Source: a phage. Taken from it: a stretch of 64,000 nucleotides of DNA. Positions within the stretch are counted from its first letter, which is position 1. Each line of letters starts with the position of its first letter. Location: the sequence record PZ386951.1; one strand, written 5' to 3'. The notes beneath the pieces are model-generated. The model had not been told where the DNA came from, searched no databases, and saw nothing but the letters and a program-made list of their open reading frames with translations. Positions 6,448-60,700 of the stretch are shown in pieces. Both the position numbers and the translations under genes were made by a program.

Positions 6448-8013
6448 ATGACTATCAAAACTAAAGCTGAACTTTTGAACAAATGGAAGCCATTACTGGA
6501 AGGTGAAGGTTTACCGGAAATTGCTAATAGCAAACAAGCGATTATCGCTAAAATCTTTGAAAACCAGGAAAAAGATTTCCAGACAGCTCCGGAATATAAA
6601 GACGAAAAAATTGCTCAGGCATTCGGTTCTTTCTTAACAGAAGCTGAAATCGGTGGTGACCACGGTTACAACGCTACTAACATCGCTGCAGGTCAGACTT
6701 CTGGCGCAGTAACTCAGATTGGCCCAGCTGTTATGGGTATGGTACGTCGTGCTATTCCTAACCTGATTGCTTTCGATATTTGCGGTGTTCAGCCGATGAA
6801 CAGCCCAACCGGTCAGGTATTCGCACTCCGCGCAGTATATGGTAAAGACCCAATCGCTGCCGATGCTAAAGAAGCATTCCACCCAATGTATGGTCCAGAT
6901 GCAATGTTCTCTGGTCAGGGTGCTGCTAAGAAATTCACTGCTTTAACCGCTGGCACCACTACTGTCAAAGGTGATATCTATACTTACTTCTTCCAGGAAA
7001 CCGGTACTGTATATCTGCAAGCTTCCGCTGTAGTAACAATTAGTTCAAGCGCCGATGACGCAGCTAAATTAGACGCCGAAGTTAAAAAACAAATGGAAGC
7101 TGGTGCACTGGTAGAAATCGCTGAAGGTATGGCTACTTCTATCGCTGAACTTCAGGAAGGTTTTAACGGTTCTACTGATAACCCATGGAATGAAATGGGC
7201 TTCCGTATCGATAAACAAGTTATCGAAGCTAAATCTCGCCAGCTGAAAGCTGCTTACTCTATCGAATTAGCACAAGACCTCCGCGCTGTTCATGGTATGG
7301 ATGCTGACGCTGAACTGTCCGGTATTCTGGCTACCGAAATCATGCTGGAAATCAACCGCGAAGTTGTTGATTGGATTAACTACTCAGCGCAGGTTGGTAA
7401 ATCTGGTATGACCCTGACTCCGGGTTCTAAAGCTGGTGTATTTGACTTCCAGGATCCGATTGATATTCGTGGTGCTCGCTGGGCAGGTGAATCCTTTAAA
7501 GCTCTGTTGTTCCAGATTGACAAAGAAGCAGTTGAAATTGCTCGTCAGACTGGTCGCGGTGAAGGTAACTTCATTATCGCTTCCCGTAACGTAGTTAACG
7601 TTCTGGCTTCAGTTGATACCGGCATTTCTTATGCTGCACAGGGTCTGGCTACCGGCTTTAACACTGATACTACCAAGTCAGTATTTGCTGGTGTTCTGGG
7701 TGGTAAATACCGTGTATATATTGACCAGTATGCTAAACAGGATTATTTCACTGTAGGTTATAAAGGTCCGAACGAAATGGATGCTGGTATTTACTATGCT
7801 CCATATGTAGCTCTGACTCCGCTGCGTGGTTCCGATCCGAAGAACTTCCAACCAGTAATGGGATTCAAAACTCGTTACGGTATCGGTATTAACCCATTTG
7901 CAGAATCCGCTGCTCAGGCTCCGGCTTCTCGCATTCAGAGCGGTATGCCTTCTATCCTGAACAGCCTTGGTAAAAACGCTTACTTTAGACGTGTATATGT
8001 TAAAGGTATCTAA
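6448..8013 (+). CDS. 23: major capsid protein gp23
   Basis: 521 aa; MTIKTKAELLNKWKPLLEGEGLPEIANSKQAIIAKIFENQ matches T4 gp23 as recalled; elevated GC from codon bias. Confidence 0.97.
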   Translation: MTIKTKAELLNKWKPLLEGEGLPEIANSKQAIIAKIFENQEKDFQTAPEYKDEKIAQAFGSFLTEAEIGGDHGYNATNIAAGQTSGAVTQIGPAVMGMVRRAIPNLIAFDICGVQPMNSPTGQVFALRAVYGKDPIAADAKEAFHPMYGPDAMFSGQGAAKKFTALTAGTTTVKGDIYTYFFQETGTVYLQASAVVTISSSADDAAKLDAEVKKQMEAGALVEIAEGMATSIAELQEGFNGSTDNPWNEMGFRIDKQVIEAKSRQLKAAYSIELAQDLRAVHGMDADAELSGILATEIMLEINREVVDWINYSAQVGKSGMTLTPGSKAGVFDFQDPIDIRGARWAGESFKALLFQIDKEAVEIARQTGRGEGNFIIASRNVVNVLASVDTGISYAAQGLATGFNTDTTKSVFAGVLGGKYRVYIDQYAKQDYFTVGYKGPNEMDAGIYYAPYVALTPLRGSDPKNFQPVMGFKTRYGIGINPFAESAAQAPASRIQSGMPSILNSLGKNAYFRRVYVKGI

Positions 8014-8062: not shown

Positions 8063-8725
8063 CTATTTTATACGATAGCAATCAGGCATATCATCCGCAT
8101 TTATCCAATTGCGAATAGTTTTAGGACTAACTTTAAAATGCTCCGCTGCGTAATCAGGATTATCAAATTTAACGCCCTTTATACATATTGGAATAAATTT
8201 TTTAATACCACCAAGTTTTTCAGAAATAGCTTTACGATGTGAAATCGATATAGGTTTATTTTTTCGTGGATGAACATGTGTTTTATAATATTCATTGCGC
8301 CCTTTAACTCGCTTCGCAATAGTTTCATCAGATTGCTTAACGCCTGTTTTTGCCTTTGATATTTTTCGTTTAGCTTCCACAGTCATTCCTTCTTTTGTTC
8401 GTATTGATAACATATTACGATATGAAGGATCTTGCAAATGAACTATAACTGGATTTCCTCTGCCACCAATAGCAGCATTATAGGTATCAGTTCTCATAAC
8501 GAATTCCTCATTGACTAGTAAAGCTTCCATTTTATACATCTCCTCAGATGAGGAGAAAGAATAAAGAATTTCTTTTTTAAAGTTATGAATACCATATTTT
8601 TTGATGGATTTTTTGATGTTTACGCCAGAACCCATATAACCATCGTTTTCGTCAAGAGTAGCATGAGCTCCGATGTAAATTTTTCCATTGATGATATTAG
8701 TAATTTGATATATTAAATATTTCAT
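8063..8725 (-). CDS. segD: GIY-YIG homing endonuclease, Seg family (segD-like)
   Basis: N-terminal YLIYQITNIINGKIYIGA GIY-YIG motif; free-standing between genes 23 and 24; start taken at the ATG with GGAG 11 nt upstream (track starts at 8764). Confidence 0.7.
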   Translation of the reverse strand: MKYLIYQITNIINGKIYIGAHATLDENDGYMGSGVNIKKSIKKYGIHNFKKEILYSFSSSEEMYKMEALLVNEEFVMRTDTYNAAIGGRGNPVIVHLQDPSYRNMLSIRTKEGMTVEAKRKISKAKTGVKQSDETIAKRVKGRNEYYKTHVHPRKNKPISISHRKAISEKLGGIKKFIPICIKGVKFDNPDYAAEHFKVSPKTIRNWINADDMPDCYRIK

Positions 8726-8789
8726 TTTAAACATCGCTCCGTTTGTATATGAATATAATATCATATTACTTTGGTCTTGTAAATAACTT

Positions 8790-8824: not shown

Positions 8825-10108
8825 ATGGCTAAAATCAACGAACTTCTGCGCGAATCAACCACAACGAATAGCAACTCAATCGGTCGCCCAAATCTCGTTG
8901 CTTTGACTCGCGCTACCACTAAATTAATATATTCTGACATTGTAGCAACGCAAAGAACTAATCAACCTGTTGCTGCTTTTTATGGTATCAAATACCTTAA
9001 CCCAGACAATGAATTTACATTTAAAACTGGTGCTACTTACGCTGGCGAAGCTGGATATGTAGACCGAGAACAAATCACAGAATTAACAGAAGAGTCTAAA
9101 TTAACTCTCAATAAAGGCGATTTATTCAAATATAATAACATCGTTTATAAAGTATTAGAAGATACACCATTTGCTGATATTGAAGAAAGCGATTTAGAAT
9201 TAGCTCTTCAGATTGCAATTGTTCTTTTAAAGGTTCGTCTATTTTCTGACGCAGCGTCAACGAGCAAATTTGAAAGCTCTGATAGCGAAATTGCTGATGC
9301 TAGATTCCAGATTAATAAATGGCAAACCGCCGTTAAATCTCGTAAACTTAAAACTGGCATTACAGTTGAATTAGCACAAGATTTAGAAGCAAACGGATTC
9401 GACGCTCCTAATTTCCTGGAAGATTTGCTTGCAACCGAAATGGCGGATGAAATCAACAAAGATATTTTACAATCTTTGATTACCGTATCAAAACGCTATA
9501 AAGTTACAGGAATTACTGATACTGGATTCATCGATTTGAGTTATGCATCTGCTCCTGAAGCAGGTCGTTCATTATACCGAATGGTATGTGAAATGGTTTC
9601 GCATATCCAAAAAGAATCAACTTATACAGCAACGTTCTGTGTTGCTTCTGCTCGTGCCGCTGCGATTCTTGCTGCATCAGGTTGGTTAAAACATAAACCA
9701 GAAGATGACAAATATCTTTCACAAAATGCCTACGGGTTCTTAGCTAATGGTTTACCGCTTTATTGCGATACTAACAGCCCATTAGATTATGTAATCGTTG
9801 GTGTAGTAGAAAATATCGGTGAAAAAGAAATTGTTGGATCAATTTTCTATGCTCCGTATACAGAAGGTCTCGACTTAGATGACCCTGAACATGTAGGTGC
9901 ATTTAAAGTTGTTGTTGATCCAGAAAGCTTACAACCATCTATCGGTTTATTAGTTAGATATGCTTTATCAGCAAATCCTTATACCGTAGCAAAAGATGAA
10001 AAAGAAGCAAGAATAATCGACGGTGGAGACATGGATAAAATGGCGGGTCGTTCAGATTTGTCTGTTTTATTAGGTGTTAAATTACCCAAAATTATTATCG
10101 ATGAATAA
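8825..10108 (+). CDS. 24: head vertex protein gp24
   Basis: 427 aa, gp23-like fold; same length and position as T4 gp24. Confidence 0.93.
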   Translation: MAKINELLRESTTTNSNSIGRPNLVALTRATTKLIYSDIVATQRTNQPVAAFYGIKYLNPDNEFTFKTGATYAGEAGYVDREQITELTEESKLTLNKGDLFKYNNIVYKVLEDTPFADIEESDLELALQIAIVLLKVRLFSDAASTSKFESSDSEIADARFQINKWQTAVKSRKLKTGITVELAQDLEANGFDAPNFLEDLLATEMADEINKDILQSLITVSKRYKVTGITDTGFIDLSYASAPEAGRSLYRMVCEMVSHIQKESTYTATFCVASARAAAILAASGWLKHKPEDDKYLSQNAYGFLANGLPLYCDTNSPLDYVIVGVVENIGEKEIVGSIFYAPYTEGLDLDDPEHVGAFKVVVDPESLQPSIGLLVRYALSANPYTVAKDEKEARIIDGGDMDKMAGRSDLSVLLGVKLPKIIIDE

Positions 10109-14136: not shown

Positions 14137-14165
14137 TAGATATATTTATTACATGGTATTTAGAC

Positions 14166-15677
14166 ATGACTGACATTAAAGTACATTTTTATGATTTTAG
14201 TCACGTGAGAATTGATTGTGAAGAAAGTACATTTCATGAACTCCGTGATTTCTTCAGCTTTGAAGCTGATGGGTATCGTTTTAATCCGAAATACAAATAT
14301 GGCCACTGGGATGGACGAATCCGTCTTTTAGATTATAATCGTCTTCTTCCATTCGGCTTAGTCGGGCAAATTAAAAAGTTCTGTGATAACTTTGGCTATA
14401 AAGCCTGGATTGACCCACAAATTAACGAAAAAGAAGAATTATCAAGAAAAGATTTTGATGAATGGCTTTCTAAATTAGAAATCTATTCAGGAAATAAAAG
14501 AATTGAACCACATTGGTATCAAAAAGATGCAGTGTTCGAAGGATTAGTTAATCGTCGTAGAATTCTTAATCTTCCAACATCTGCAGGTAAATCTTTAATT
14601 CAAGCTTTGCTTGCGCGATATTATTTGGAAAATTATGAAGGTAAAATTCTTATCATTGTTCCAACAACTGCTCTGACAACTCAGATGGCTGATGACTTCG
14701 TTGACTATCGTTTATTCAGTCATGCAATGATAAAGAAAATTGGTGGCGGAGCATCAAAAGATGATAAATATAAAAATGATGCACCAGTCGTTGTTGGTAC
14801 ATGGCAAACTGTAGTAAAACAGCCAAAAGAATGGTTCTCACAGTTTGGAATGATGATGAATGATGAATGCCATCTTGCTACAGGAAAAAGTATTTCATCT
14901 ATCATATCAGGTTTAAATAACTGCATGTTCAAATTTGGTCTATCTGGTTCATTACGTGATGGCAAAGCCAATATCATGCAGTATGTTGGAATGTTTGGTG
15001 AAATATTTAAGCCAGTAACGACTTCTAAGTTAATGGAAGATGGACAAGTAACTGAGCTAAAAATTAATAGTATTTTTCTTCGCTATCCCGATGAGTTCAC
15101 TACTAAATTAAAGGGAAAAACTTATCAAGAAGAAATAAAAATTATTACTGGGCTTAGTAAAAGAAATAAATGGATCGCTAAATTAGCTATTAAGCTTGCG
15201 CAAAAAGATGAAAACGCTTTTGTCATGTTTAAACATGTATCGCACGGTAAAGCTATTTTCGATTTAATTAAAAATGAATACGATAAAGTTTATTACGTAT
15301 CAGGGGAAGTTGATACCGAAACCCGCAATATAATGAAAACCTTAGCTGAAAATGGTAAAGGAATAATTATAGTAGCGAGTTATGGTGTATTTTCTACTGG
15401 TATTTCAGTTAAAAATCTGCATCACGTTGTTTTAGCGCACGGTGTTAAATCAAAAATCATTGTATTACAAACAATCGGTCGTGTATTACGTAAGCACGGT
15501 TCTAAGACAATAGCAACAGTCTGGGACCTCATAGATGATTGTGGTGTTAAGCCAAAATCTGCTAATACGAAAAAGAAATATGTTCATTTGAACTATCTTT
15601 TAAAACACGGCATTGATCGTATTCAGCGCTACGCAGATGAAAAATTTAATTACGTAATGAAAACAGTTAATTTATAA
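14166..15677 (+). CDS. uvsW: UvsW DNA/RNA helicase (SF2)
   Basis: 503 aa; Walker A LPTSAGKS and DECH box; matches T4 UvsW as recalled. Confidence 0.95.
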   Translation: MTDIKVHFYDFSHVRIDCEESTFHELRDFFSFEADGYRFNPKYKYGHWDGRIRLLDYNRLLPFGLVGQIKKFCDNFGYKAWIDPQINEKEELSRKDFDEWLSKLEIYSGNKRIEPHWYQKDAVFEGLVNRRRILNLPTSAGKSLIQALLARYYLENYEGKILIIVPTTALTTQMADDFVDYRLFSHAMIKKIGGGASKDDKYKNDAPVVVGTWQTVVKQPKEWFSQFGMMMNDECHLATGKSISSIISGLNNCMFKFGLSGSLRDGKANIMQYVGMFGEIFKPVTTSKLMEDGQVTELKINSIFLRYPDEFTTKLKGKTYQEEIKIITGLSKRNKWIAKLAIKLAQKDENAFVMFKHVSHGKAIFDLIKNEYDKVYYVSGEVDTETRNIMKTLAENGKGIIIVASYGVFSTGISVKNLHHVVLAHGVKSKIIVLQTIGRVLRKHGSKTIATVWDLIDDCGVKPKSANTKKKYVHLNYLLKHGIDRIQRYADEKFNYVMKTVNL

Positions 15678-24583: not shown

Positions 24584-26640
24584 TACATTTTGAACTTTTT
24601 AGACATTCCGTTAATGTTAACCAAAGAAGCTAAGATTTGAGAAACTTCGTTTTCCTCTTCTTTTGATTCTTCTACAAGGAATTGATTAAATCCAGTCATT
24701 GGACGAACTTCACCAGTTTCCATTAGATGGTCGCCATCATATACTGATTCCTCTAATTGTTCAGAAGGAGGAACGATTGTACCTTCGATTAGATACTTGT
24801 TATAAGCAGTTTCTTTCATAAAGTACGTACTTACTTTATTAATCTTCAGTAAAATTCCACGCGGTAGAATAACTTCAGCTTCTGATGGAAATCCTGATAA
24901 ATGACCTGGAACAATAACTTTGATTCGCTCAGCTCCTTTAATTACCATACCCACGCTAGTTTCAGCATCTTCATTAGCATATGTAGAATGACTACCCATA
25001 TGCATCAAATCTTCTGCATCAACGGAACCTTCTACTTCGCCAGAAAACGCTGCACCGGAATCATCTAGAGCCATATAGTTTTTACCATGCTCACCGAAGA
25101 TATTTGGTTTAAGCGATGTGGATACGAAGTTCTTGAAATAGAACATTTTGTTTTCAATGTTATGACGCAAAGTTTTAAATGTAACTTCTTGTCCACGGTA
25201 AAGTGTAGTTCCTGGAGGAAGAACTGAACCTTTAGCGAATGCAGAATCAAGCGTCTCAATATGTTTAATAGCTCGTTCCATATATTCTTCACGGGTAGAA
25301 TCTGGTTTACCCAAAAGGAACGAGTTCATTTCAACATATGAATCTGCACAATAATCTTCAATTACATCAGATTCAGCTTGAGTTAATCCTTTTGGAGTTA
25401 CTTCGGTGCTTGCGTATTCATATGCCTGGGCAGCAGATTCATTAATCAATTTATAAATGCCATTCATGACAAATTGAATAATAGCTGTCTTTTCATCTGG
25501 CGTGGCTTTAGAACCTTTAACTAAATCATTAATAATTTTCTTAATAACATCAAAGCTATTAGAAATATTAATGTCAGCAAGATCGCTTAAAATTTTATCA
25601 GTTTTATAATCAAAGAATTCTTTATTCTTTAAATATTCTTGAGAACCTTGATATGTTATATCGCTCTGCAACTTGATAGATGGATCACGTAAACGCGCAT
25701 GGGCTAATGCAATATGATTTCGGAAGTTTTCTAGTTCATAATCGCTAGATTTAAAACGAGAAGCACTCCTCATACCACCGATAGCTCCTTTGCTGAAGTT
25801 TGAACCAATCTGGATAACGCCAGAGTTCATCGGACCTTCTGCTTTATATACCGGAACTTTAGATTCAAACTCTTGATATTTCTTAGCAGCGAAGCTATCA
25901 CCCTGAAGTGAAGCATCAACAGTAGAATATTGAGCTTGTGCTGCTAATCGACGACTAATTTTAGTTTTCTGAATAACAGCTTGATCCGTACGCTTATCAT
26001 TTTCTTGTGCAATAGAAGCAGCAACAGCAACAGCTTTAGGAACAGCATTACCTGTTTTAACGTCTACATAAACATCACCAACCTTTGATTCAACTTTTGT
26101 GAATAACTCAGTTGAAATAGGAGGTACACCTGGAATGTCTTCTAAATTGGCATTTTTACGGTAAACCATAATATATGCATACTTTTTATCATAGTCCCAG
26201 ATTTCCTTTAAAAGAACATATCGACCTGCTCCTTTAGTACGTACTAAACGGTCAGCAATAACTTGCATTTGACGAGCAGCGCCATTTGTTTTACTTTTTA
26301 GTACGCGGAATAAGCATGCATCAATTTTATACTGCTTCATTGTTTGAAGAGCAGTATCAAAAACAGCATTAATGACGCCAATTGGATTTCCACCCAAGTT
26401 TCTAAGCTTAACCAGCGATAATTTCTCGTTGACACCTATCATTACGATATGCATCATTTTGTCGCCCGGCTTAACGTTTTTATTTGTATCACCGCCAGAG
26501 GTGTATGTACAAAATCTAAATCCAGGAAGAACGATTTCTTCACCGGCTTGAATAGCAAAAATTTGTGGTATTTTATGCTTAGGATTTAAGTTAACAACCG
26601 GCGCCGAAGCGCCGTCAAATAATTCTGTAATAAGTTCCAT
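24583..26640 (-). CDS. Alt-like ADP-ribosyltransferase paralog
   Basis: 685 aa; N-terminus MELITELFD and C-terminal ART motifs YRGQ, FVSTSL, SEAEVILPRG shared with the adjacent alt; central region divergent. Confidence 0.8.
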   Translation of the reverse strand: MELITELFDGASAPVVNLNPKHKIPQIFAIQAGEEIVLPGFRFCTYTSGGDTNKNVKPGDKMMHIVMIGVNEKLSLVKLRNLGGNPIGVINAVFDTALQTMKQYKIDACLFRVLKSKTNGAARQMQVIADRLVRTKGAGRYVLLKEIWDYDKKYAYIMVYRKNANLEDIPGVPPISTELFTKVESKVGDVYVDVKTGNAVPKAVAVAASIAQENDKRTDQAVIQKTKISRRLAAQAQYSTVDASLQGDSFAAKKYQEFESKVPVYKAEGPMNSGVIQIGSNFSKGAIGGMRSASRFKSSDYELENFRNHIALAHARLRDPSIKLQSDITYQGSQEYLKNKEFFDYKTDKILSDLADINISNSFDVIKKIINDLVKGSKATPDEKTAIIQFVMNGIYKLINESAAQAYEYASTEVTPKGLTQAESDVIEDYCADSYVEMNSFLLGKPDSTREEYMERAIKHIETLDSAFAKGSVLPPGTTLYRGQEVTFKTLRHNIENKMFYFKNFVSTSLKPNIFGEHGKNYMALDDSGAAFSGEVEGSVDAEDLMHMGSHSTYANEDAETSVGMVIKGAERIKVIVPGHLSGFPSEAEVILPRGILLKINKVSTYFMKETAYNKYLIEGTIVPPSEQLEESVYDGDHLMETGEVRPMTGFNQFLVEESKEEENEVSQILASLVNINGMSKKFKM

Positions 26641-26643
26641 GAT

Positions 26644-28740
26644 TTATCCTTGAACGAACTTGTAAGGCATGTTTGTAATATCTATGCAAGACGCAATAAT
26701 TCCGAGAGATGATTCTACTTTCTGTTTAACATTTGATGAAACAAATGATGCAAAGTCAACTCTGTCTTCTATTTCAATATCACCTGTCATTGCAACTACT
26801 TCGCCGGTTTCCATTAAATGGTCTCCGTCATAGATTACCGATTCGGTGAGCTCTTCCGTGGTCATAACTTCAGCTTGAATGAGTTTTGTATTATTAGACG
26901 TGGTTCCGTCATTATTAGAAGCATCAGTTATTTTATTAACTTTGACCATCAATCCACGCGGTAGAATAACTTCAGCTTCTGTTGCTATTCCGAGACTTCC
27001 TGGATATACAACATTAACTTTATGAGCTCCATCAATTGCCCATCCTATTTGAACTTTAACGTATTCAGGATTTTCTTTATACGCTCTTATTTCGTTTGGA
27101 TTAATAGTTATTCCTTCTTCATTTTTATCAACTGTTAATTCATTGCGAGCTTCTGGTTCTAAAAGACCAATACCAGCATGTGTGATTCCAAAACGTCCAA
27201 AAATGATAGGAGTTAAAGAAGTAGATACAAAATTTCTGAAGTAGAACACTTTATTTTTAACTAACGCTTCATATATAGGAGCAGTCATACTTTGAGCACG
27301 ATAAACTGTAATGCCTTCTGGTATACGGTCACCATTTTCAAAAGCTGAATCTAAGTTATTTATAGCAGATTCAATTTCTTTTTCACTCATTACATCGTAT
27401 CGTTCTGGATTGTAACGACCTAAAAGAAGATTATTAATGTCTGTATATCCTGAACCGCAATATTCTCTAATGCCACGCTTTTGTGATGGAGTATATTTAG
27501 AACCATCGCGGGCAATAGTAATATCAATCATTGGACCGGCACCAATTCCAGAAAAACTGTAAATCATTCGTTTGAGGAATTTAGTTTTTGCTGCGTTCCA
27601 GGAATTTTTAGTTATTTCTTCCCAGACTTCGTCTGGTTGCCCTTTACGAGTTTTATTATGTTTATCAAGCCAATTATCTTTATATTCTTCAAAGAATTTA
27701 TTAACAGCTGCTGCGTATTTCTCTAAACATTTTATTGAAGTAGTTGGTTCATTTTTGATTGCGTTAAAAATTACATCTTTAATTTTTTCTGAAACTTCAT
27801 CAACCTCACTTTTTGAAAAGAATTTATAGTCATAGTGAAGTTCATTCGCAGTTCCTTCGGCAATAATTTTTGCTGCCTTAGTTTTAGAAGCTAATGAATT
27901 AATTCCAAGCTTCATTTCTTCTGCTTCGGGAATTAAAGGAGCGTCAGCAGGTTTATTTAATTCTGCTGCTGAAGCCTCAAATTTTTGAAATATCGGCGTT
28001 TCAAATCTAGAAGATTCCAACGACTGACTTTGTGCAATTGCTCTACGGGAAATTTTAACTTTAACGATTACCGCTTGGTCAGAACGTTTATCATTTTCTT
28101 GCGCAATAGATGCTGCAATTGCCTCATTTTTAGTTACTTGGGCTCCAGTATCTTTATTGATATAAACATCACCGACCTTCGATTCAACTTTAGCAAAGAG
28201 CTCGGTACTAATTTCCGGAACTCCTGGAATGTCTTCTAGTGATACATTTTTGCGATGTATAAGAATATATGCATACTTTTTGTCGTAATCCCAGAGTTCC
28301 TTGAGAAGGACGTATCTGCCACCTGAACGACTACGGATAAGTCTATCAGCAATAACTTGAATTTGTCGAGCTTGGCCAGCAGTTTTAGACTTAAGAATAC
28401 GAAGCATACAAGCATCAATTTTATACTGACGCATCGTTTGCATTGCAACAGTAAAAACTGAATTGATATAATTAATTGGGCTTGGACCAAGACCTTTTAA
28501 TTTAGCAATTGAACCTTTAGCAGTTAATGTAAAAGGAACAATATGCATCATTTTATCGCCCATCTTTAAATCGCGATTAGTATCACCTCCAGATGTATAG
28601 GTACATAAACGAAAGCCTGGTTGTTCAATTGCGTCATCAACATGAACTGAAAAAATTTGTGGTATTTTCTTCTTTGGATTTAAGTTTGTAATCGGAAGAG
28701 TAGTATCTTCGTCAAATAATTCTGTAATGAGTTCCATCAT
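26644..28740 (-). CDS. alt: Alt ADP-ribosyltransferase (packaged, injected with DNA)
   Basis: 698 aa; MMELITELFDEDTTLPITNL matches T4 Alt as recalled; R-S-EXE motifs YRAQ, FVSTSL, TEAEVILPRG. Confidence 0.88.
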   Translation of the reverse strand: MMELITELFDEDTTLPITNLNPKKKIPQIFSVHVDDAIEQPGFRLCTYTSGGDTNRDLKMGDKMMHIVPFTLTAKGSIAKLKGLGPSPINYINSVFTVAMQTMRQYKIDACMLRILKSKTAGQARQIQVIADRLIRSRSGGRYVLLKELWDYDKKYAYILIHRKNVSLEDIPGVPEISTELFAKVESKVGDVYINKDTGAQVTKNEAIAASIAQENDKRSDQAVIVKVKISRRAIAQSQSLESSRFETPIFQKFEASAAELNKPADAPLIPEAEEMKLGINSLASKTKAAKIIAEGTANELHYDYKFFSKSEVDEVSEKIKDVIFNAIKNEPTTSIKCLEKYAAAVNKFFEEYKDNWLDKHNKTRKGQPDEVWEEITKNSWNAAKTKFLKRMIYSFSGIGAGPMIDITIARDGSKYTPSQKRGIREYCGSGYTDINNLLLGRYNPERYDVMSEKEIESAINNLDSAFENGDRIPEGITVYRAQSMTAPIYEALVKNKVFYFRNFVSTSLTPIIFGRFGITHAGIGLLEPEARNELTVDKNEEGITINPNEIRAYKENPEYVKVQIGWAIDGAHKVNVVYPGSLGIATEAEVILPRGLMVKVNKITDASNNDGTTSNNTKLIQAEVMTTEELTESVIYDGDHLMETGEVVAMTGDIEIEDRVDFASFVSSNVKQKVESSLGIIASCIDITNMPYKFVQG

Positions 28741-39004: not shown

Positions 39005-39501
39005 AAAGTTTTAATAACCTCTATAATATCGTCTTGAGAAAGACCGTTAATTAAAATATGATGTTCAGCCGGAGATTTAGAAATTTTAAAGCATGCCTCA
39101 ACATCTTCTGCCATATCCGATGCACTACGATTTGGATTACTAATTCCAAGACGATGCTTTCCGGTCAAAGGATTAACGATGATATAGCATTTACAGCTAT
39201 TGATATGAACATTAGGCTGAGTCTGATTAATGAATACTTCACAATCATACTTAGCGAGTTGATTTTCTAAAAAGACTTTCATCTCCTCAACCGCATCAGG
39301 AAGCATATCACGGGCTTGCTCAAGACGACGATTTCGATATTCTTTAATGGTCGTTTTCCGCTTGACTTGCTTAGCTAAATCTTTCTTAAGATCGGTGATA
39401 TATCCAACTCGACGATTTCCTTTGAATACAGAAATCCCATCTGTAGTATCACCGTATGCTTCAACGACCATTTCAGTAGTAATAAGTTGTAAATCCATCA
39501 T
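38995..39501 (-). CDS. alc: Alc, inhibitor of host transcription on cytosine-containing DNA
   Basis: 168 aa; T4 Alc position between the pseT region and rnlA. Confidence 0.75.
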   Translation of the reverse strand: MMDLQLITTEMVVEAYGDTTDGISVFKGNRRVGYITDLKKDLAKQVKRKTTIKEYRNRRLEQARDMLPDAVEEMKVFLENQLAKYDCEVFINQTQPNVHINSCKCYIIVNPLTGKHRLGISNPNRSASDMAEDVEACFKISKSPAEHHILINGLSQDDIIEVIKTLCN

Positions 39502-39507
39502 AAAGTC

Positions 39508-39559
39508 CTCATGTTATGTCAGTAAGACTACTGTAACACAACACGAGGGACTTGTAAAC
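39508..39559 (-). promoter_or_regulatory. early promoter plus stem-loop cassette (PeSL-like), copy 2
   Basis: 51 of 53 nt identical to 24531-24583; minus-strand GTTTAC -35; immediately upstream of alc. Confidence 0.55.
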
Positions 39560-39562
39560 AGC

Positions 39563-41150
<1,588 letters not shown>

Positions 41151-41158
41151 AATAAAAT

Positions 41159-41172
41159 GGGCCTTGCGGCCC
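41159..41172. terminator. hairpin GGGCC-TTGC-GGCCC downstream of nrdB
   Basis: inverted repeat between the nrdB stop and the denA start. Confidence 0.45.
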
Positions 41173-41177
41173 ACTCC

Positions 41178-42356
41178 TTAAAAATATTTTTTAAAACTCA
41201 TCATAACTTTATCATCAACATCATTATCAATCTGTGCAACAAGGTAAGATGACAGTTCTACTTCTTGCGGTGCAGATTGAACATTATCAGAATTAAGATA
41301 TTCACGAATCCAAGGATATGGATGTTTAACCGGAGCATCGGTAATTGGGCATGGAAGACCACACTGTTTCATACGAGATACAGTTAAGTAATCAATAAAG
41401 CTCCACATGCTATTTGTATTTAATCCAGGAACATCGCCATCTTTAAATAAATGAACTGCCCAATCTTTTTCTTGGCGGTTAACTTCCATGAAAATATCAA
41501 CTGCTTCTTGTTCACACTCTTTGGCAATTTTAACCCATTCATCACCATCAGTGCCAAGTTGAAGTTGACGAATAATATATTGGGTGCCTTTAAGGTGAAG
41601 CTGTTCATCACGTGCAATGAACTTCATAATCTTGGCATTACCTTCCATGATTTCCATGTTCTTATGGAAGTTAAAGGTACATGCGAAAGATACATAAAAA
41701 CGAATAGCTTCCAATGCGTTGATTACATGCAAACAGAGGTAAAGAGATTTCATTAGCTCACGCTTCCAATATGTCTCATGCTCAATAGCATCTTCAATAA
41801 CGTCTTCGTCTGCATTAATTTCTTTTTGGTATTCGATATCAGCTTTAGCGTTTTCCCAATAACGAGTTTTAATCAGAACATCATCATAATAGCGACCGAT
41901 AGATTCAGCGCGTTTCATAATAGCTTCATCTAATACAATCTCATCAAATACCTTTGACGGATCAGTATAAAGATTTCGCATGATATGAGTATATGAACGA
42001 CTGTGAATAGTTTCACTAAAAGTCCATGTAGCAACCCATGTATCAAGACTTGGGTCTGAAATTAATGACATAAGTACAGCAGATGGCGCACGACCCTGAA
42101 TGCTATCTAAAAGTGATTGATACTTCAAGTTATTAGTAAAAATATTCTGCTGATACTGAGGAAGTTTATTAAACTGTGCAGCATCCATCATTAAGTTTAC
42201 TTCTTCAGGACGCCAGAAAAATGATAATTGCTTTTCGGTCAAATCTTCAAATACTCGATGCCGTTGAATATCATAACGCGCAATACCAAGACCTGAACCA
42301 AAAAACATAGGTTCTTTTAAAACATCAACTGGGTTTGTATTAAAAACTGTGCTCAT
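41178..42356 (-). CDS. nrdB: ribonucleotide reductase small subunit, uninterrupted
   Basis: 392 aa continuous ORF; di-iron RNR small-subunit family. Confidence 0.95.
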   Translation of the reverse strand: MSTVFNTNPVDVLKEPMFFGSGLGIARYDIQRHRVFEDLTEKQLSFFWRPEEVNLMMDAAQFNKLPQYQQNIFTNNLKYQSLLDSIQGRAPSAVLMSLISDPSLDTWVATWTFSETIHSRSYTHIMRNLYTDPSKVFDEIVLDEAIMKRAESIGRYYDDVLIKTRYWENAKADIEYQKEINADEDVIEDAIEHETYWKRELMKSLYLCLHVINALEAIRFYVSFACTFNFHKNMEIMEGNAKIMKFIARDEQLHLKGTQYIIRQLQLGTDGDEWVKIAKECEQEAVDIFMEVNRQEKDWAVHLFKDGDVPGLNTNSMWSFIDYLTVSRMKQCGLPCPITDAPVKHPYPWIREYLNSDNVQSAPQEVELSSYLVAQIDNDVDDKVMMSFKKYF

Positions 42357-42407
42357 AAATTTTCCGCTTAGTTAATAGTTGGTGACTCGTCCATGAGTCA
42401 AATTATA

Positions 42408-44672
42408 TCATAATTTACAGGATGAACAATCTTCAGCTTTAGGAGTTTCTATTTCATAATCATCAGTACCAGAACCATCACGGGTATTATGATAATAGAA
42501 ATTTTTTCCGCCAAAATACCAGAAATACAAAAGGTCATCAATCATTATTGACATTGGAACCTTTCCTTTTGGAAAAATCTGCGGGTCATAATATGTATTC
42601 GCTGAAGCTGATTGACATACCCATTTCAGCATAATAGCTACCTGCGTAAGATAAGGTTTATTACCTTTCTTAGCTAATTTCCACGTATAATCATATAGGT
42701 CTATGTTATGTTCAATATTGGGCACGACTTGATTAAAGGAACCCTCTTTTGATTCTTTAACAGAGACTGGTCCACGTGGAGGCTCGATACCGTTTGTACT
42801 GTTAGAAACTTGGGAAGATGACTCACACGGCATAAGTGCTGATAATGTGCTATTACGGATGCCAAAGAGCTTAAGGTCTTCCCGCAGCGACGACCAGTCA
42901 CAAACGTATTTTGGAGCTGCGATTTGGTCAATCTTTTTATTGTACCAGTCGATAGGTAATTCGCCTCGAGACCAACGAGTGTCTGAATAATATTCGCAAG
43001 GTCCTTTTTCTTTGGCGAGTTTAATGGATGCTTTAATGAGTCCATACTGTAATCTCTCAAATAGTTCATGTGTTAAATCATTAGCATCTTCATAAGAAGC
43101 AAAGTTACTTGCCAGCCAAGCTGCATAGTTGGTAACACCTACACCGAGGTTACGACGCTTTTTAGCTTTTTCTGCTTCAGGAACTGGATATCCTTGGTAA
43201 TCCAATAGATTATCAAGAGCACGAACTTGAACTTCTGCCAATTCATTAATTTTATCTTGGTCTTGCCAATCGAAGCTATCCAACACAAATGCAGATAACG
43301 TACACAATCCAATTTCAGCATCAGGACTATTCACATCATTTGTTGGAATAGCAATTTCACAGCACAAGTTACTCTGACGGATAGGTGCCTTTTCACGAAT
43401 AAACGGAGTGTAGTTATTCGTATTATCAATGAACTGCACATAAATCCTTGCTGTTCCTGAGCGTTCAGTCATGAGCAATTCAAATAGTTCACGGGCTTTA
43501 ATACGCTTTTTACGAATATTAGGGTCTTTTTCTGCTGCTTCGTATAATTCACGGAAACGGTCTTGGTCTTTAAAATAAGAATAATAAAGCTCGCCACCCA
43601 TTTCATGGGGACTAAATAACGTAATGTAATCGTTCTTTCCGAATCGTTCCATCATCAAATCATTCAGTTGAACACCATAATCCATATGACGAATGCGGTT
43701 TTCTTCTACACCTTTGTTATTTTTCAAAACGAGAAGATTTTCAACTTCCAAATGCCAAATAGGATAATAAGCAGTAGCAGCGCCGCCACGAATTCCACCC
43801 TGTGAGCATGATTTAACTGCAGTCTGAAAATGTTTCCAAAAAGGAATAACACCAGTATGGCGTACTTCGCCCATGCCAATCTTAGAACCTTCGGCACGAA
43901 TCATACCAACGTTAATACCAATTCCAGCGCGTTTAGAGATATATTCAACAATTGAAGCGGAAGCCTTATTGATAGACTTTAATGAATCACCTGCCTCAAT
44001 AACAACGCATGAACTAAACTGCCGAGTTGGAGTACGGCAACCAGCCATAATAGGAGTTGGCAATGAAATCTGTCGAGTAGATACTGCTTCATAAAAACGA
44101 ATAACATGTTTTAATCTATCAACAGGTTCATCTTGATGCAATGCCATTCCAATAGTCATAAATGCAAACTGTGGAGTTTCATAAATTTGACCAGTGGTTT
44201 TATCTTTAACTAGATATTTTTCTTTTAATTGCATCGCCCCGGAATAAGTAAATTCCATATCCCGCTCGTGCTTAATTTTTGATTCTAAAAATGTAATTTC
44301 TTCTGCTGAATATTTTGACAATAATTCAGGGTCATATTTACCTTCATTTACACAGTAAGAAATATGGTCAATAAATGAACGCGGTTCATACTGCCCATAA
44401 ACATGCTTACGAAGAGCAAACATTAAACAGCGTGCAGCTACATATTGATAATCAGGTTCTTCAACCGAAATAGAATTCGCAGCGGCCTTAATGACAATAG
44501 TCTGAATATCATCAGTTGTCATTCCATCACGGAGATAAGATTTAATATTTTCATATAATTCATAAGGATCTACTGATGTTCCCTCAGCTGCCCAAGATAA
44601 AACTTTAATAATTTTTTGTGGGTCAAAGCTCTGAGAAACACCACTACTTTTGATAACATTAATTAATTGCAT
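42408..44672 (-). CDS. nrdA: ribonucleotide reductase large subunit
   Basis: 754 aa; N-terminal ATP cone and class I RNR catalytic cysteines. Confidence 0.96.
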   Translation of the reverse strand: MQLINVIKSSGVSQSFDPQKIIKVLSWAAEGTSVDPYELYENIKSYLRDGMTTDDIQTIVIKAAANSISVEEPDYQYVAARCLMFALRKHVYGQYEPRSFIDHISYCVNEGKYDPELLSKYSAEEITFLESKIKHERDMEFTYSGAMQLKEKYLVKDKTTGQIYETPQFAFMTIGMALHQDEPVDRLKHVIRFYEAVSTRQISLPTPIMAGCRTPTRQFSSCVVIEAGDSLKSINKASASIVEYISKRAGIGINVGMIRAEGSKIGMGEVRHTGVIPFWKHFQTAVKSCSQGGIRGGAATAYYPIWHLEVENLLVLKNNKGVEENRIRHMDYGVQLNDLMMERFGKNDYITLFSPHEMGGELYYSYFKDQDRFRELYEAAEKDPNIRKKRIKARELFELLMTERSGTARIYVQFIDNTNNYTPFIREKAPIRQSNLCCEIAIPTNDVNSPDAEIGLCTLSAFVLDSFDWQDQDKINELAEVQVRALDNLLDYQGYPVPEAEKAKKRRNLGVGVTNYAAWLASNFASYEDANDLTHELFERLQYGLIKASIKLAKEKGPCEYYSDTRWSRGELPIDWYNKKIDQIAAPKYVCDWSSLREDLKLFGIRNSTLSALMPCESSSQVSNSTNGIEPPRGPVSVKESKEGSFNQVVPNIEHNIDLYDYTWKLAKKGNKPYLTQVAIMLKWVCQSASANTYYDPQIFPKGKVPMSIMIDDLLYFWYFGGKNFYYHNTRDGSGTDDYEIETPKAEDCSSCKL

Positions 44673-44989
44673 AAGTCCTCAACTTGAAAATCGTCTTTAA
44701 ACAATCGGTTAACTATATGAGCTATTATATCACCATGACACGGCTTTGGTTTACATGTGCATCCTAGCCTCATTCCACGTAAAGGCTCTAAATGTGCTTT
44801 AGTTATTTCTCCGGATTTAATTCGACGTATAAAATCTTTTTTGAATAATTCAATGGCAGCCTCCCGGCTGCCAGCATCTTTACCGACGTAATTTCCCCAA
44901 AATGTACCGCGGTGAATATTAACATCAAAGTCGGATTTATATTTATTCACTACCCGGCATAAACGGCCCGCGCGGTTGTAGGTGTTCAT
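44663..44989 (-). CDS. hypothetical protein (nrdA.1 position)
   Basis: 108 aa with ATG start. Confidence 0.55.
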
Positions 44990-45206
44990 ATTGTTCTTCC
45001 GTTAAAACAGTAATATCGTAGTAACAGTCAGAAGAAGTTTTAACTGTGGAAATTTTATTGTCAAAATACTCACGAGTCATTTTATAAGTATAATATTTTT
45101 TACCATAAATGGTAATAGGCTGTTCTGGTCCTGGAACTTCTAACTCGCTTGGGTTAGGAAGTGTAAAAAGAACAACGCCAGAAGTATCTTTAAATCGTAA
45201 AATCAT
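44943..45206 (-). CDS. hypothetical protein (nrdA.2 position)
   Basis: 87 aa with ATG start. Confidence 0.5.
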
Positions 45207-46063
45207 ATTGCCATTTTCCCTTTAATTGCTGAATGCGATTCATAATTTTCAAGGATAAAATCTTTCGGTTTCATGTATTCAGTTAACCAGTAAAGCTGTG
45301 TTTCGGTGTCACAATTTCCAAACTCTATAGGCCAATCAATTTTAAGTTCACATAGTTCTTTAGGCTCACGACGTAAAATTTCTTTACATTGCTCAGTATG
45401 ATTCATATAGATGTGAGTATTACCACCAGAAAATATCAAATCTCCTGGGATAAGATTACACATCTTAGCCACAATATGTGTCAAGGCAGCGTACGAGGCA
45501 ATGTTGAATGGCAATCCCAAGAAAACATCTACACTTCTTTGGTACCATTGTAAATCAAGATAACCATTACGCACATTAAACTGATAGAACATATGACAGG
45601 GCGGTAATGCCATTTGATTGATTTCAGCTGGATTCCATGCTGAAACGATTTGACGTCGATCAGTTGGTAATTTTTTAATACGATCAATAGTTTCAACTAA
45701 TTGATCCACACCACCGAAATCACGCCATTGTTTACCGTATATAGGACCAAGTTCACCGCTATGATATCCTAGGTCTTTAGCCTGGTTTTCATAGTTATCG
45801 TCCCAAATAGTTTTACCTTGAATAAGACTACCATGAGTGCGAAGACGTAAATCATTAACATTGGTAGAACCGGAAATAAACCATAGAAGCTCAGCAATAC
45901 ATGCGTTCCAGGCGAGCTTTTTAGTTGTTACTGCAGGAAAGCCTTTAGTTAAATCCCAACGCAATTTAGTACCGAACAAAGCGATTGTTCCTGTGCCTGT
46001 ACGATCATCGGTTTCATAACCATTTTCAAAAATGTCTTTAATTAAATCTTGGTATTGTTTCAT
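45203..46063 (-). CDS. td: thymidylate synthase, uninterrupted
   Basis: 286 aa continuous ORF; [26 protein letters not shown] and active-site PPCH matching T4 Td. Confidence 0.96.
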
Positions 46064-46078
46064 TTAACACCTATATAA

Positions 46079-47271
<1,193 letters not shown>

Positions 47272-47275
<4 letters not shown>

Positions 47276-47631
47276 ATCACCTCCCACTGAAATGGACCAG
47301 AAGCAAATCCGCTATCTTTAATCATTTTAACTAAAGTTACCATTCCTCTGTTAACTGCTTGTGCGATTTCATCAAAAACTTCATCACTATCACCATAAAG
47401 ATCGCTAAAAAGTTCTAACACGTTCTTCTGAACTTTTAATTTACAGCCAACAAATTCGCCTACAGTAAATTCGTTTCCGCCAACTCCAGCGTAAAACGTA
47501 ATTACACCAGTTAATGGTCTTTCACTAGAACATAGGTCGTGTGATAAATTAATATAAGCCGTCCCGGGTGCAGTTTTAAGTTGGCAACGAATACTTACTC
47601 GAGCAATTCCAGCTACACGAATGTCAGACAT
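47272..47631 (-). CDS. hypothetical protein (frd.2 position)
   Basis: 119 aa with ATG start. Confidence 0.55.
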
Positions 47632-49634: not shown

Positions 49635-49717
49635 TTTTATTTCCTTTTTAATTTAATTAACAGTTGGTGCTATGACGATGTATGACCTCATAGCTGGTCA
49701 GTGAGATAATTATAATC

Positions 49718-49725
49718 TATTTATA
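49718..49725 (-). promoter_or_regulatory. T4-type late promoter on the minus strand upstream of gene 32
   Basis: plus-strand TATTTATA is TATAAATA on the minus strand. Confidence 0.45.
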
Positions 49726-49733
49726 ATAAGCAA

Positions 49734-57727: not shown

Positions 57728-60700
57728 ATGGCTACTTTAAAACAAATACAATTTAAAAGAAGCAAAACCGCAGGTGCACGTCCTGCTGCTTCAGTATTAG
57801 CCGAAGGTGAATTGGCTATAAACTTAAAAGATAGAACAATTTTTACTAAAGATGATTCAGGAAATATCATTGATCTAGGTATTGCTAAAGGCGGCCAGGT
57901 TGATGGTGATGTAACTATCAACGGTAAATTAACATTAAATGGCGCGTATGTTCAGACGCTGGCTGGTATTAATACCACGGGTGGTATTAATTCTGGAGCC
58001 GCTATAAGTGCAACAACTTATTATGCTCGGTCTGGTTCTTTTTATGCTCGTGCTCCAGATGCCAATGCGAATACACATGTTTGGTTTGAAAATAACAATG
58101 GTATAGAACGTGGTGTGATTTGGGCTGTTCCGAACACTTCAGACCTAGGCTCGGTACGTATTCGAGCAAAAACCGCAGGTGGTGTTTTTGCCGGCGAGTA
58201 CAGTTTCCGCTCTGATGGCCGATTTGATGTTCCTGTAGCAGTTAAAATCGGCGGAGCAGCGATGCTAACCAAAGATGGCAACATTACCTCTGGTTCTATG
58301 TTTGGCGGTAACCTTAACAACTATTTGACTTCTATTAAAAATGACATTGTTGCTGGTGATAATAAGAAAGTAAGTAAAACCGGTGACACGATGTCCGGTA
58401 ACTTGACTATTAACGCTAACTTAAAAGTCGAAAACTCTAATGGAACGTTTGTTGATTTAGGTTCAGAGAACTCTGATAAGTATAGCAGATTAACTCTTGC
58501 TCGTAAAATTGGCGATGGCGCTGGTGTAGCAATGCTTAAAGTTACTCCTGAAGGAAACGTGCAATTTGGTTATCAACCTACAGTTGCTACTCCATCTCCT
58601 ACCAAGTATATTCTAATTAAATCTAATGGTCTTGAAGTAGAAGGGGATTTAGTTTTTAAGCAAACTTATCGTGGTACTGAAGAAGCAATTGATATTACTG
58701 ATCAGACTATTGACCTTAATAGTCTGATCATTAGACACTCAGATTTAGGCACTCGTAAGCTGTATAAATGCAGATCATCTGGCGGTGGTTCTAATATATT
58801 GAACAAACCTACATCTGACGGCAACTTTACTCTTGAAGTTCTGTCTTTACGCAAGGTTTCTGATACCGATTGGTCATGTAAACAGACCTTTACTACAAAG
58901 AACAACAATGTCGTAGGCGTATATGTTCGCTACGGGCAAGGTGGCTCATGGTCTGCATGGCAAGAAGTTGTATCTGGTGTTCAACCAATTAATTTAGGTG
59001 GTACTGGAGCAACTTCTGTAGCTGCTGCCCGTAATAACCTTGGTATTGGTGCAGGCCAAACTGTAACATTCGGTAATTTAGTTACCACCGATTTAACCGT
59101 AAATGGAAATGCTAGATTAGTCGGAAGACTGAACTTTGGTTCTAATTCTCAGTCGGCTGGTGTATTACGAGCCAACGAAGGTGGGGCTGTTGTTTTAAGT
59201 TCTGCAAGTGGTGCAAACATCCACATCAGAGCGGACGGCGATACTTCTACCGGTGAAACTCGCTTTGAGCCAAATGGCAACGTTGTAGTCGGTGGTGCTA
59301 TTACAGCATCTCAGCGTATTACAGTTAATGCTGCCACCGATGCTATTGTTGTTAACGCTCCAACTCAAGCATCATCCAACTATATTCAGGGTCGTAAAGC
59401 TGGTGTCGCTAAATGGTATGTCGGCATTGGCGATGATGGTGATGCAGTACGTCTACATAACAATGTATATTACCATGGTATTGGATTGAGCGCTGATACT
59501 GTCGATATTACCAAGCCTCTTAAAATAGGAAATGTTAAACTAGGAACTGACGGTAATATCACCGGTGGTTCTGGCAATTTTTCTAACTTGAACACAACAT
59601 TAAACCGCAAAGTTAATGTTGGCGTATGGTCAGGTGTTGATAAAGTAGTAGGATGGTACTGGTACAAATTCGCTACTGTAACAATGCCACAATCTACATC
59701 TACCGCGCGTTTCAAAATTATCGGCGGGAATGGTTATAATGCTAATTCTCCTGAACAAGCATCTGTAAGTGAAATTGTTCTTAGAACTGGTAATAATAAT
59801 CCTAAATCTATTAATGCGGTGCTGTGGTCTAGCACTAGTACCAGCCCGTCAAACATTGCTACAGTGAATACATCTGGCGATAATTATGATGTATATGTAT
59901 ACATGGGCTCTTTTGCCCAATCTTTATTAGTTGAATATGATGCTACAGTGAATATTAGCGATATTTCGGTAATCGGTCTTAATGGTGCATCTCAATCACC
60001 GGTAGAAGAATTACCTGCAGACCATGTGCTTGGACACGTGTATAAGATGTATTCCGATGCTCAGATACCTTATCCTGTTGGCGCTCCTATTCCATGGCCG
60101 AGAGATTCAATTCCAGATGGATTTGCTTTAATGGAAGGCCAGACCTTTGATAAGTCTGCATATCCAAAGCTAGCTATTGCGTATCCTAGTGGTGTTATTC
60201 CTGATATGCGAGGCCAGACTATTAAGGGTAAACCGAGCGGTCGCGCAGTGTTGAGTGCTGAAGCTGATGGTATTAAGTCCCATACCCATATTGCCTCAGC
60301 ATCCACTACTGCTTTGTCTGGTACTACAAGCGCTACTGATTTAGGGACTAAAACTGTTAGTACAACAGATCTAGGCCGTAAACATACCAATCTTGCTGGT
60401 ATGCATACTCATACAGTATCCGGTACAACGAGTACTGACGGTAGGCACGCACACACTGCTTCACTTGGTAACAACGCTAACGTTCAGTCCGGTAGATTTG
60501 CAGCATCCAATTCCGGTCAGACAGCAACGACATGGACAAACGAGGATGGTCTACACTCACACACGTGGTCAGGTACTACGTCAGTAGGTCCAGAACATAG
60601 TCACTATACTGATATCGGTACACATAACCATACAGTGGCTATAGGTTCACATACTCACACGTTTTCTATTGCTGCTCATGACCATACGATTACTGTAAAT

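Follow-up and report, generated by a model that had tools for sequence, protein, structure and literature searches.

Uninterrupted td and nrdB genes with empty group I intron sites in a phage close to RB14

That the td and nrdB introns occur in some T-even phages and not in others has been recognized since the late 1980s (papers cited in PMC2988022). Intron endonucleases have been listed only for T4, T6, RB3, and LZ2 among genomes of the T-even type, and RB14 appears in the same list with 2 seg-like genes and without any intron endonuclease (PMC2993671, Table 5). With 15 genes for homing endonucleases, T4 "remains the outlier" (PMC2988022). Here, we analyzed a 64,000-nucleotide (nt) stretch of phage DNA (record PZ386951.1; this whole stretch is called the window below) for the state of 2 genes, td (thymidylate synthase) and nrdB (ribonucleotide reductase [RNR] small subunit), which lie on its minus strand between positions 41178 and 46063. 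Both genes are continuous in the window, and the positions at which T4 carries group I introns are empty. We consider it very likely that the window comes from an RB14/T2-type Tequatrovirus with the common, uninvaded td and nrdB alleles, lacking a group I intron, an intron endonuclease, and mobE, and that this phage would be T2-like in co-infection with T4; in the same joint reading, and with equally high probability, td and nrdB are expressed in the ordinary way, each from one unbroken reading frame. The phage differs from T4 in this respect because T4 has an unusually large number of homing endonuclease genes.

In T4, the td intron carries I-TevI. The I-TevIII of its nrdB intron is a defunct deletion derivative, and that intron is mobilized in trans by MobE, which nicks the recipient nrdB at nt 122-126 (codon 42). 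T2 and every phage without mobE have AAG as this codon, and transfer of T4 mobE and of the nrdB intron into T2 has been shown experimentally (PMC2790892).

Continuous genes and empty insertion sites

The td gene of the window (45203-46063, minus strand) is a single open reading frame (ORF) of 286 amino acids (aa) that matches the thymidylate synthase profile (PF00303) over its full length, with residues 2-286 covering profile positions 1-266 of 266 (319 bits, E 2e-95), and 238 of its 286 residues are identical to T4 Td. The nrdB gene (41178-42356, minus strand) is likewise a single uninterrupted ORF of 392 aa and represents the T2/RB14-type allele; residues 33-335 match the class Ia RNR small subunit profile (PF00268) with 127 bits (cut-off 33.6, E 1e-36). 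We aligned window positions 39500-47100 globally with the corresponding T4 region (NC_000866) using MAFFT, with the T4 exon junctions fixed from the sequence (td: exon 1 of 549 nt and intron of 1017 nt; nrdB: exon 1 of 664 nt and intron of 598 nt). In the alignment, one gap of 1017 nt fell between window positions 45515 and 45514, precisely where T4 has its td intron, and the T4 nrdB intron was likewise faced by one gap of 598 nt, between 41681 and 41680, exactly at its insertion site. The empty td site (45514-45515, minus strand) lies between gene nt 549 and 550 (GGA and TTG) and the empty nrdB site (41680-41681, minus strand) between gene nt 676 and 677 (GCAT and GTAC). An earlier reading made from the sequence only had described a 286-aa td and a 392-aa nrdB as intron-free with empty insertion sites, and both descriptions hold, given the continuous ORFs, the full-length td profile match, and the clean gaps placed exactly opposite both T4 introns. 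The absence of an intron is here a statement of presence or absence, in which chance is not at issue.

We also searched for introns with the Rfam Intron_gpI model (RF00028), using T4 as a positive control. At an E-value threshold, both T4 introns were recovered (40.3 and 35.7 bits, E 9e-8 and 2e-6), and no match was identified in window positions 40700-47100 or in the whole window. At the Rfam gathering threshold (cut-off 50 bits), the window was negative too, and we discarded that negative because both genuine T4 introns were also missed; a "no hit" from Rfam at default settings cannot show the absence of phage group I introns that bear an endonuclease ORF. Matches to L20_leader (E 0.3-0.9, in T4 and the window) and Yar_1 (E 0.19) were at chance level and were rejected. 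Blastn of T4 intron DNA against the window gave chance-level matches of 14-34 nt only. The sequence-only reading had named an intron with a catalytic core, found on realignment, as what would speak against it; none was found by MAFFT or Rfam.

No match in the window was obtained by tblastn with I-TevI (GIY-YIG), I-TevIII (HNH; T4 and full-length forms), MobE, NrdB.1, or SegG, and the sole match to SegE was the segD gene, a paralogue. The spacer between nrdA and nrdB (42357-42407, minus strand) is 51 nt long and, by alignment with T4 and tblastn, is without mobE, hef, and nrdB.1; T4 positions 139720-140414, holding mobE and nrdB.1, were gapped in the window in the MAFFT alignment, approximately 645 nt in total. 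Unlike T4, the window lacks segE (T4 112057-112674), mobE together with nrdB.1, and segG (T4 147909-148541), whose counterpart positions are 14152-14172, 42357-42407, and 49697-49733, respectively.

The td-nrdB interval consists of 5 minus-strand genes, td, nrdA.2, nrdA.1, nrdA, and nrdB, followed by denA and rnlA, and T4 has this gene set, this order, and the insertion-site codons in common with the window. Over this interval, RB14 (FJ839692/NC_012638) was the top database match, at 97.7% in a single collinear piece, and hundreds of further Tequatrovirus records matched at 90-97%; no identical deposited genome was found for the interval in the database. By these matches, the source phage is placed in Tequatrovirus, nearest to RB14. 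RB14 has the same 5 genes without introns, and its td site is identical to that of the window from -32 to +22; it differs from the window by 2-4% of nucleotides, so the window is not RB14 itself. The gene order of T2 (AP018813) is identical to that of the window (frd, a 115-aa ORF, td, nrdA.2, nrdA.1, nrdA, a 51-nt spacer, nrdB, denA, and rnlA), and its 286-aa td and 392-aa nrdB are both uninterrupted and without mobE, as in the window. T2 and window nrdB are 93.9% identical at the nucleotide level, with 11 aa differences, whereas the T2 td is a T4-type allele (95.8% to T4 and 77% to the window), and therefore the I-TevI site of T2 is far closer to that of T4 than the site in the window is. 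RB32 and RB14, like T2, have the gene order of the window, a 286-aa td, a 392-aa nrdB, and the 51-nt nrdA-nrdB spacer, without introns.

The td-nrdA-nrdB block was matched by 1010 records of the phage collection, 648 of them at ≥80% identity. Of the two introns, that of td was identified in 197 records with ≥80% coverage and that of nrdB in 118, corresponding to roughly 20-30% and 12-18% of comparable records, percentages that are rough because RefSeq/GenBank duplicates and many T4 laboratory strains inflate the record counts. An 80-nt probe spanning the td junction of the window was uninterrupted in 214 records, and the equivalent nrdB probe was uninterrupted in about 526 of 609. The intron-free state of td and nrdB is the norm among T4 relatives, with T4 as the exception, and has already been described. 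The contrast drawn in the sequence-only reading, "unlike T4," is real, but the oddity that it implied is not, with T2, RB14, and RB32 all alike in this respect.

State of the endonuclease targets

In nrdB, the homologue of the MobE nick site (nt 122-126 of the gene; window 42231-42235, minus strand) was located by alignment with T4 and T2. Codon 42 is AAG (Lys), the nick region reads GAAAAGCAA, the same as in T2, and the T4 codon is CGG; the FFWRPEE block is conserved. The T2 nrdA-nrdB spacer is nearly identical to that of the window, and the nick region is almost identical too. We expect the MobE site to be the relevant target in a cross with T4, with the window holding the T2-type allele that MobE nicks in T2, and the AAG codon together with the T2-like nick region argues for nicking by MobE.

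The I-TevIII homing-site homologue (-35 to +35; 41646-41715, minus strand) differs from intron-deleted T4 only at -35, -32, -5, and -2. I-TevIII cuts at -14/-16 (PMC1865063), and in this region the window is identical to intron-deleted T4; the T2 site is near-identical to that of the window, with one difference at -5. The sequence-only reading had proposed confirming that this site is intact. It does match intron-deleted T4 closely (-31 to +35, with -5 and -2 as the sole differences), but the integrity of this site is irrelevant for a cross with T4, because the T4 I-TevIII is defunct and MobE mobilizes the intron in trans; it matters only for RB3-type donors.

In td, the homologue of the I-TevI homing site (-32 to +22) lies at 45493-45546 on the minus strand, as located by alignment with T4. 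I-TevI recognizes a CNNNG motif and makes its cuts upstream of the insertion site, at distances of 23 and 25 nt (PMC5009752, PMC2988022), and an A/T-rich triplet within CNNNG is of the favored kind (PMC5009752, PMC4065259). The motif is kept in the window as CAAAG (45537-45541, -27 to -23), where T4 has CAACG, with C at -27 and G at -23 retained and an A/T-rich triplet between them, and this would count for cutting by I-TevI. All differences from T4 in the site are silent, and the 20-residue peptide across it is identical. The same reading had proposed confirming that the I-TevI site, too, is intact; on comparison with T4, it appears recognizable rather than intact, since it is not T4-identical.

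Several observations weigh against efficient invasion of this td allele and against the reading given above. Differences from T4 occupy 14 of the 54 target positions (-28, -24, -22 to -19, -1, +1, +3, +6, +9, +12, +18, and +21), including all of the first 4 spacer bases (CTCA in T4, AAGT in the window) and 6 of the 20 bases of the primary binding region (-8 to +12). I-TevI is tolerant of changes in its target, but in published assays with a Tev nuclease-linker fusion, most natural phage td sequences were cut well and RB32 td showed reduced activity (PMC4065259); the RB32 substrate shares CAAAGAAGTG with the window and differs further along, and efficient homing into td is therefore not assured. 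We rejected RB32 as a proxy for the window td site, its td being a different allele (exons 1 and 2 are 83% and 75% identical to the window) with only the first 10 nt of the cleavage/spacer in common, so the published result transfers only partly. The roughness of the intron percentages given above is a further point on the same side.

If T4 infected the same cell, this phage would most likely act like T2. MobE would nick nrdB near codon 42, and mobE would be acquired through T4-templated repair, in many cases along with the defunct nrdB intron. In td, I-TevI may cut 23/25 nt upstream of the insertion site, though how efficiently is uncertain, given the silent drift of the target. We infer cleavage and homing from the state of these targets, and by analogy with the T2 experiments and with natural recombinants such as the one described below, the status of the phage as a recipient in a cross with T4, which the sequence-only reading had proposed, is plausible.

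Natural recombinants and alternative explanations

We retrieved td loci from several intron-bearing phages, with the td intron locus of a20 (Mosigvirus) left out. The td exons of vB_EcoM_Lutter (NC_054924) belong to the window-type allele, being 93-99% identical to the window by segment and 95-99% away from the junction. Scored against T6, Lutter td is window-like at 34 consecutive informative sites in nt 285-501 and at 70 in nt 558-831. Unlike the window, it carries a 1016-nt td intron with I-TevI and a T4/T6-type patch confined to nt 505-552. This patch of <60 nt covers the I-TevI cut site and the insertion site and looks like the expected remnant of double-strand-break repair in which a short co-conversion tract was copied. 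Lutter td thus appears to record a natural homing event with a very short conversion tract, and the window td would be expected to resemble it after homing. In JE01 (PQ471460), the td intron directly adjoins CAAAGAAGTG at the I-TevI cleavage position; exon 1 of this phage is otherwise T4-like, and its CAAAGAAGTG patch is of the window/RB32 type.

For nrdB, a 1091-nt intron with a full 269-aa I-TevIII was identified in mobE-less 392-aa alleles of ECO07P1, JK45, and WFK. ECO07P1 nrdB matches the window at 94-97% identity over its first 420 nt and over exon 2. We rejected it as a clean case of nrdB co-conversion: nt 510-676 are approximately 93% identical both to intron-free RB32 and to intron-bearing JK45, and because RB32 shares this divergent upstream segment without an intron, the segment cannot be assigned to co-conversion.

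Sliding-window comparison with T4 gave 92-100% nucleotide identity over most of nrdA, falling to 82-89% in its last approximately 150 nt, which adjoin the mobE site. Identity was 76-85% in the first approximately 250 nt of nrdB, adjoining the mobE site and the MobE nick, 75-83% in the approximately 250 nt upstream of the nrdB intron site, and 95-99% in exon 2; td was 61-89% identical throughout. The fall in T4 identity across td, at the start of nrdB, and upstream of the nrdB intron site indicates that allele turnover is concentrated at the 3 mobile-element sites, a pattern that fits published ideas of endonuclease-driven marker exclusion and exchange boundaries (PMC2988022, PMC10448857). The pattern is shared by T2, RB14, and RB32 and is not specific to the window phage. 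We also observed that the identity of nrdB to T4 shifts right at the empty insertion site, and that nrdA and nrdB exon 2 lie for the most part at 95-100%.

The silent drift in td can be read differently, namely that the allele is a partly refractory target whose silent changes lower I-TevI cleavage enough to protect it from intron invasion. The 14 silent differences in 54 nt, the change from CAACG CTCA to CAAAG AAGT, and the 6 altered bases of 20 in the binding region would all fit, many CNNNG variants are poor substrates (PMC5009752), and the reduced Tev-mTALEN activity on RB32 td concerns a cleavage/spacer whose first 10 nt are the same as in the window (PMC4065259). In addition, no empty T4-type td site was found among the natural genomes in the collection. 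Against these points, the 74% identity of the site to T4 is only slightly under the td average of 82-85%, so divergence is not concentrated there; Lutter shows a window-type allele that received the intron with a short conversion tract, and in JE01 the intron adjoins CAAAGAAGTG itself. We therefore regard protection of this kind as unlikely. That the window-type td is a naturally selected, partly I-TevI-refractory allele (CAACGCTCA changed to CAAAGAAGT, with 6 of 20 binding bases altered) that slows intron invasion could be proposed as well, though we hold it to be quite doubtful; if true, it would help explain why approximately 200 sequenced relatives have this allele uninterrupted despite an intron that circulates in the same phage population.

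Under a cyclic gain-and-loss model, the lineage could instead have once held one or both introns and lost them precisely through recombination with an intron-free relative. The jump in nrdB identity to T4 at the insertion site, from 75-83% in the 250 nt upstream to 95-99% downstream, and the divergence of td (61-89%), which is far greater than that of its neighbors (92-100%), do point to much allele exchange around the sites. The same divergence is common to intron-free T2, RB14, and RB32, however, and no T4-type conversion patch lies beside either empty site in the window, unlike in Lutter. Precise loss would leave no trace, and with nothing positive in its favor we consider it improbable. 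The chance that introns are present in the phage and were collapsed or removed during assembly is practically negligible: both junctions are in frame and encode conserved peptides, the same junctions recur without interruption in hundreds of phages that were sequenced independently, and introns of 0.6-1 kb of unique sequence are not of a kind that assemblers collapse. The reading that we retain is that of common td and nrdB alleles that have not been invaded.

Genomic context and meaning for the phage

The window is collinear with T4 from approximately 98.5 kb to 162.9 kb. Between td and nrdB, we identified the nrdA.2 homologue (DUF5496; 44943-45206, minus strand; PF17600, E 1e-56), which is annotated as nrdA.2 in RB14 and T4, the nrdA.1 homologue (DUF4326; 44663-44989, minus strand; PF14216, E 5e-22), and nrdA, the RNR large subunit (42408-44672, minus strand), a single uninterrupted ORF of 754 aa recognized by its nucleotide identity to T4 nrdA. 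In a close relative, UFV-AREG1 (KX009778/NC_031030), nrdA is annotated as two pieces, nrdA_1 and nrdA_2, and the region also contains a homing endonuclease gene, which suggests a split nrdA like that of Aeromonas phage Aeh1; nrdA of the window is one 754-aa ORF. Directly downstream of nrdB lies denA (endonuclease II; 40740-41174, minus strand; Pfam GIY-YIG, E 5e-6), a non-homing GIY-YIG nuclease found at the same position in T4, RB14, and RB32.

The sequence-only reading had also noted a free-standing GIY-YIG endonuclease gene between genes 23 and 24. This gene is segD (8066-8734, minus strand), whose protein is identical to T4 SegD in 223 of 223 residues and matches PF19835 (GIY-YIG) with 27.8 bits (cut-off 25); it lies on the strand opposite to its flanking genes 23 (6448-8013) and 24 (8825-10108). 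Because the SegD proteins are identical, the phage is neither a donor nor a recipient of segD with respect to T4. Within the 64 kb, no T4-type homing endonuclease gene other than segD is kept.

Several further differences from T4 were observed outside these genes. A 115-aa ORF between frd and td (46079-46426, minus strand), whose start overlaps the end of frd, is absent from T4, relative to which it forms a 389-nt insertion in the window; T2 (115 of 116 aa identical), RB14, and RB32 have it as well, and 348-nt ORFs of equal length and position were found in T6, JE01, and Lutter. This ORF had no Pfam match, and a repeat scan of 46000-46520 recovered no flanking pair corresponding to the "9 bp repeat" claimed around it by the RB14 and RB32 records. 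Between frd and frd.1 (47030-47631, minus strand), upstream of frd, lie 2 small ORFs of 85 aa (no Pfam match) and 119 aa (DUF7247), in a stretch at about 47050-47574 that is without a T4 counterpart. The alt region (24602-27931) and the distal tail-fiber region with genes 37 and 38 (57957-60640) aligned poorly or not at all with T4; both are usual hypervariable segments of T-even genomes.

As a discovery, the intron-free state of td and nrdB is of small value, since intron variability has long been known and intron-free relatives are the majority. For annotation, the result is useful: it groups the phage with the endonuclease-poor RB14/T2-type Tequatroviruses and leads to the prediction that co-infecting T4-type phages would overwrite the td and nrdA-nrdB regions. 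A modestly useful by-product is the pairing of the window (or RB14) with Lutter as natural states before and after td homing with a conversion tract of <60 nt, and this pair could guide a test of how far an I-TevI target may drift before it escapes cleavage.

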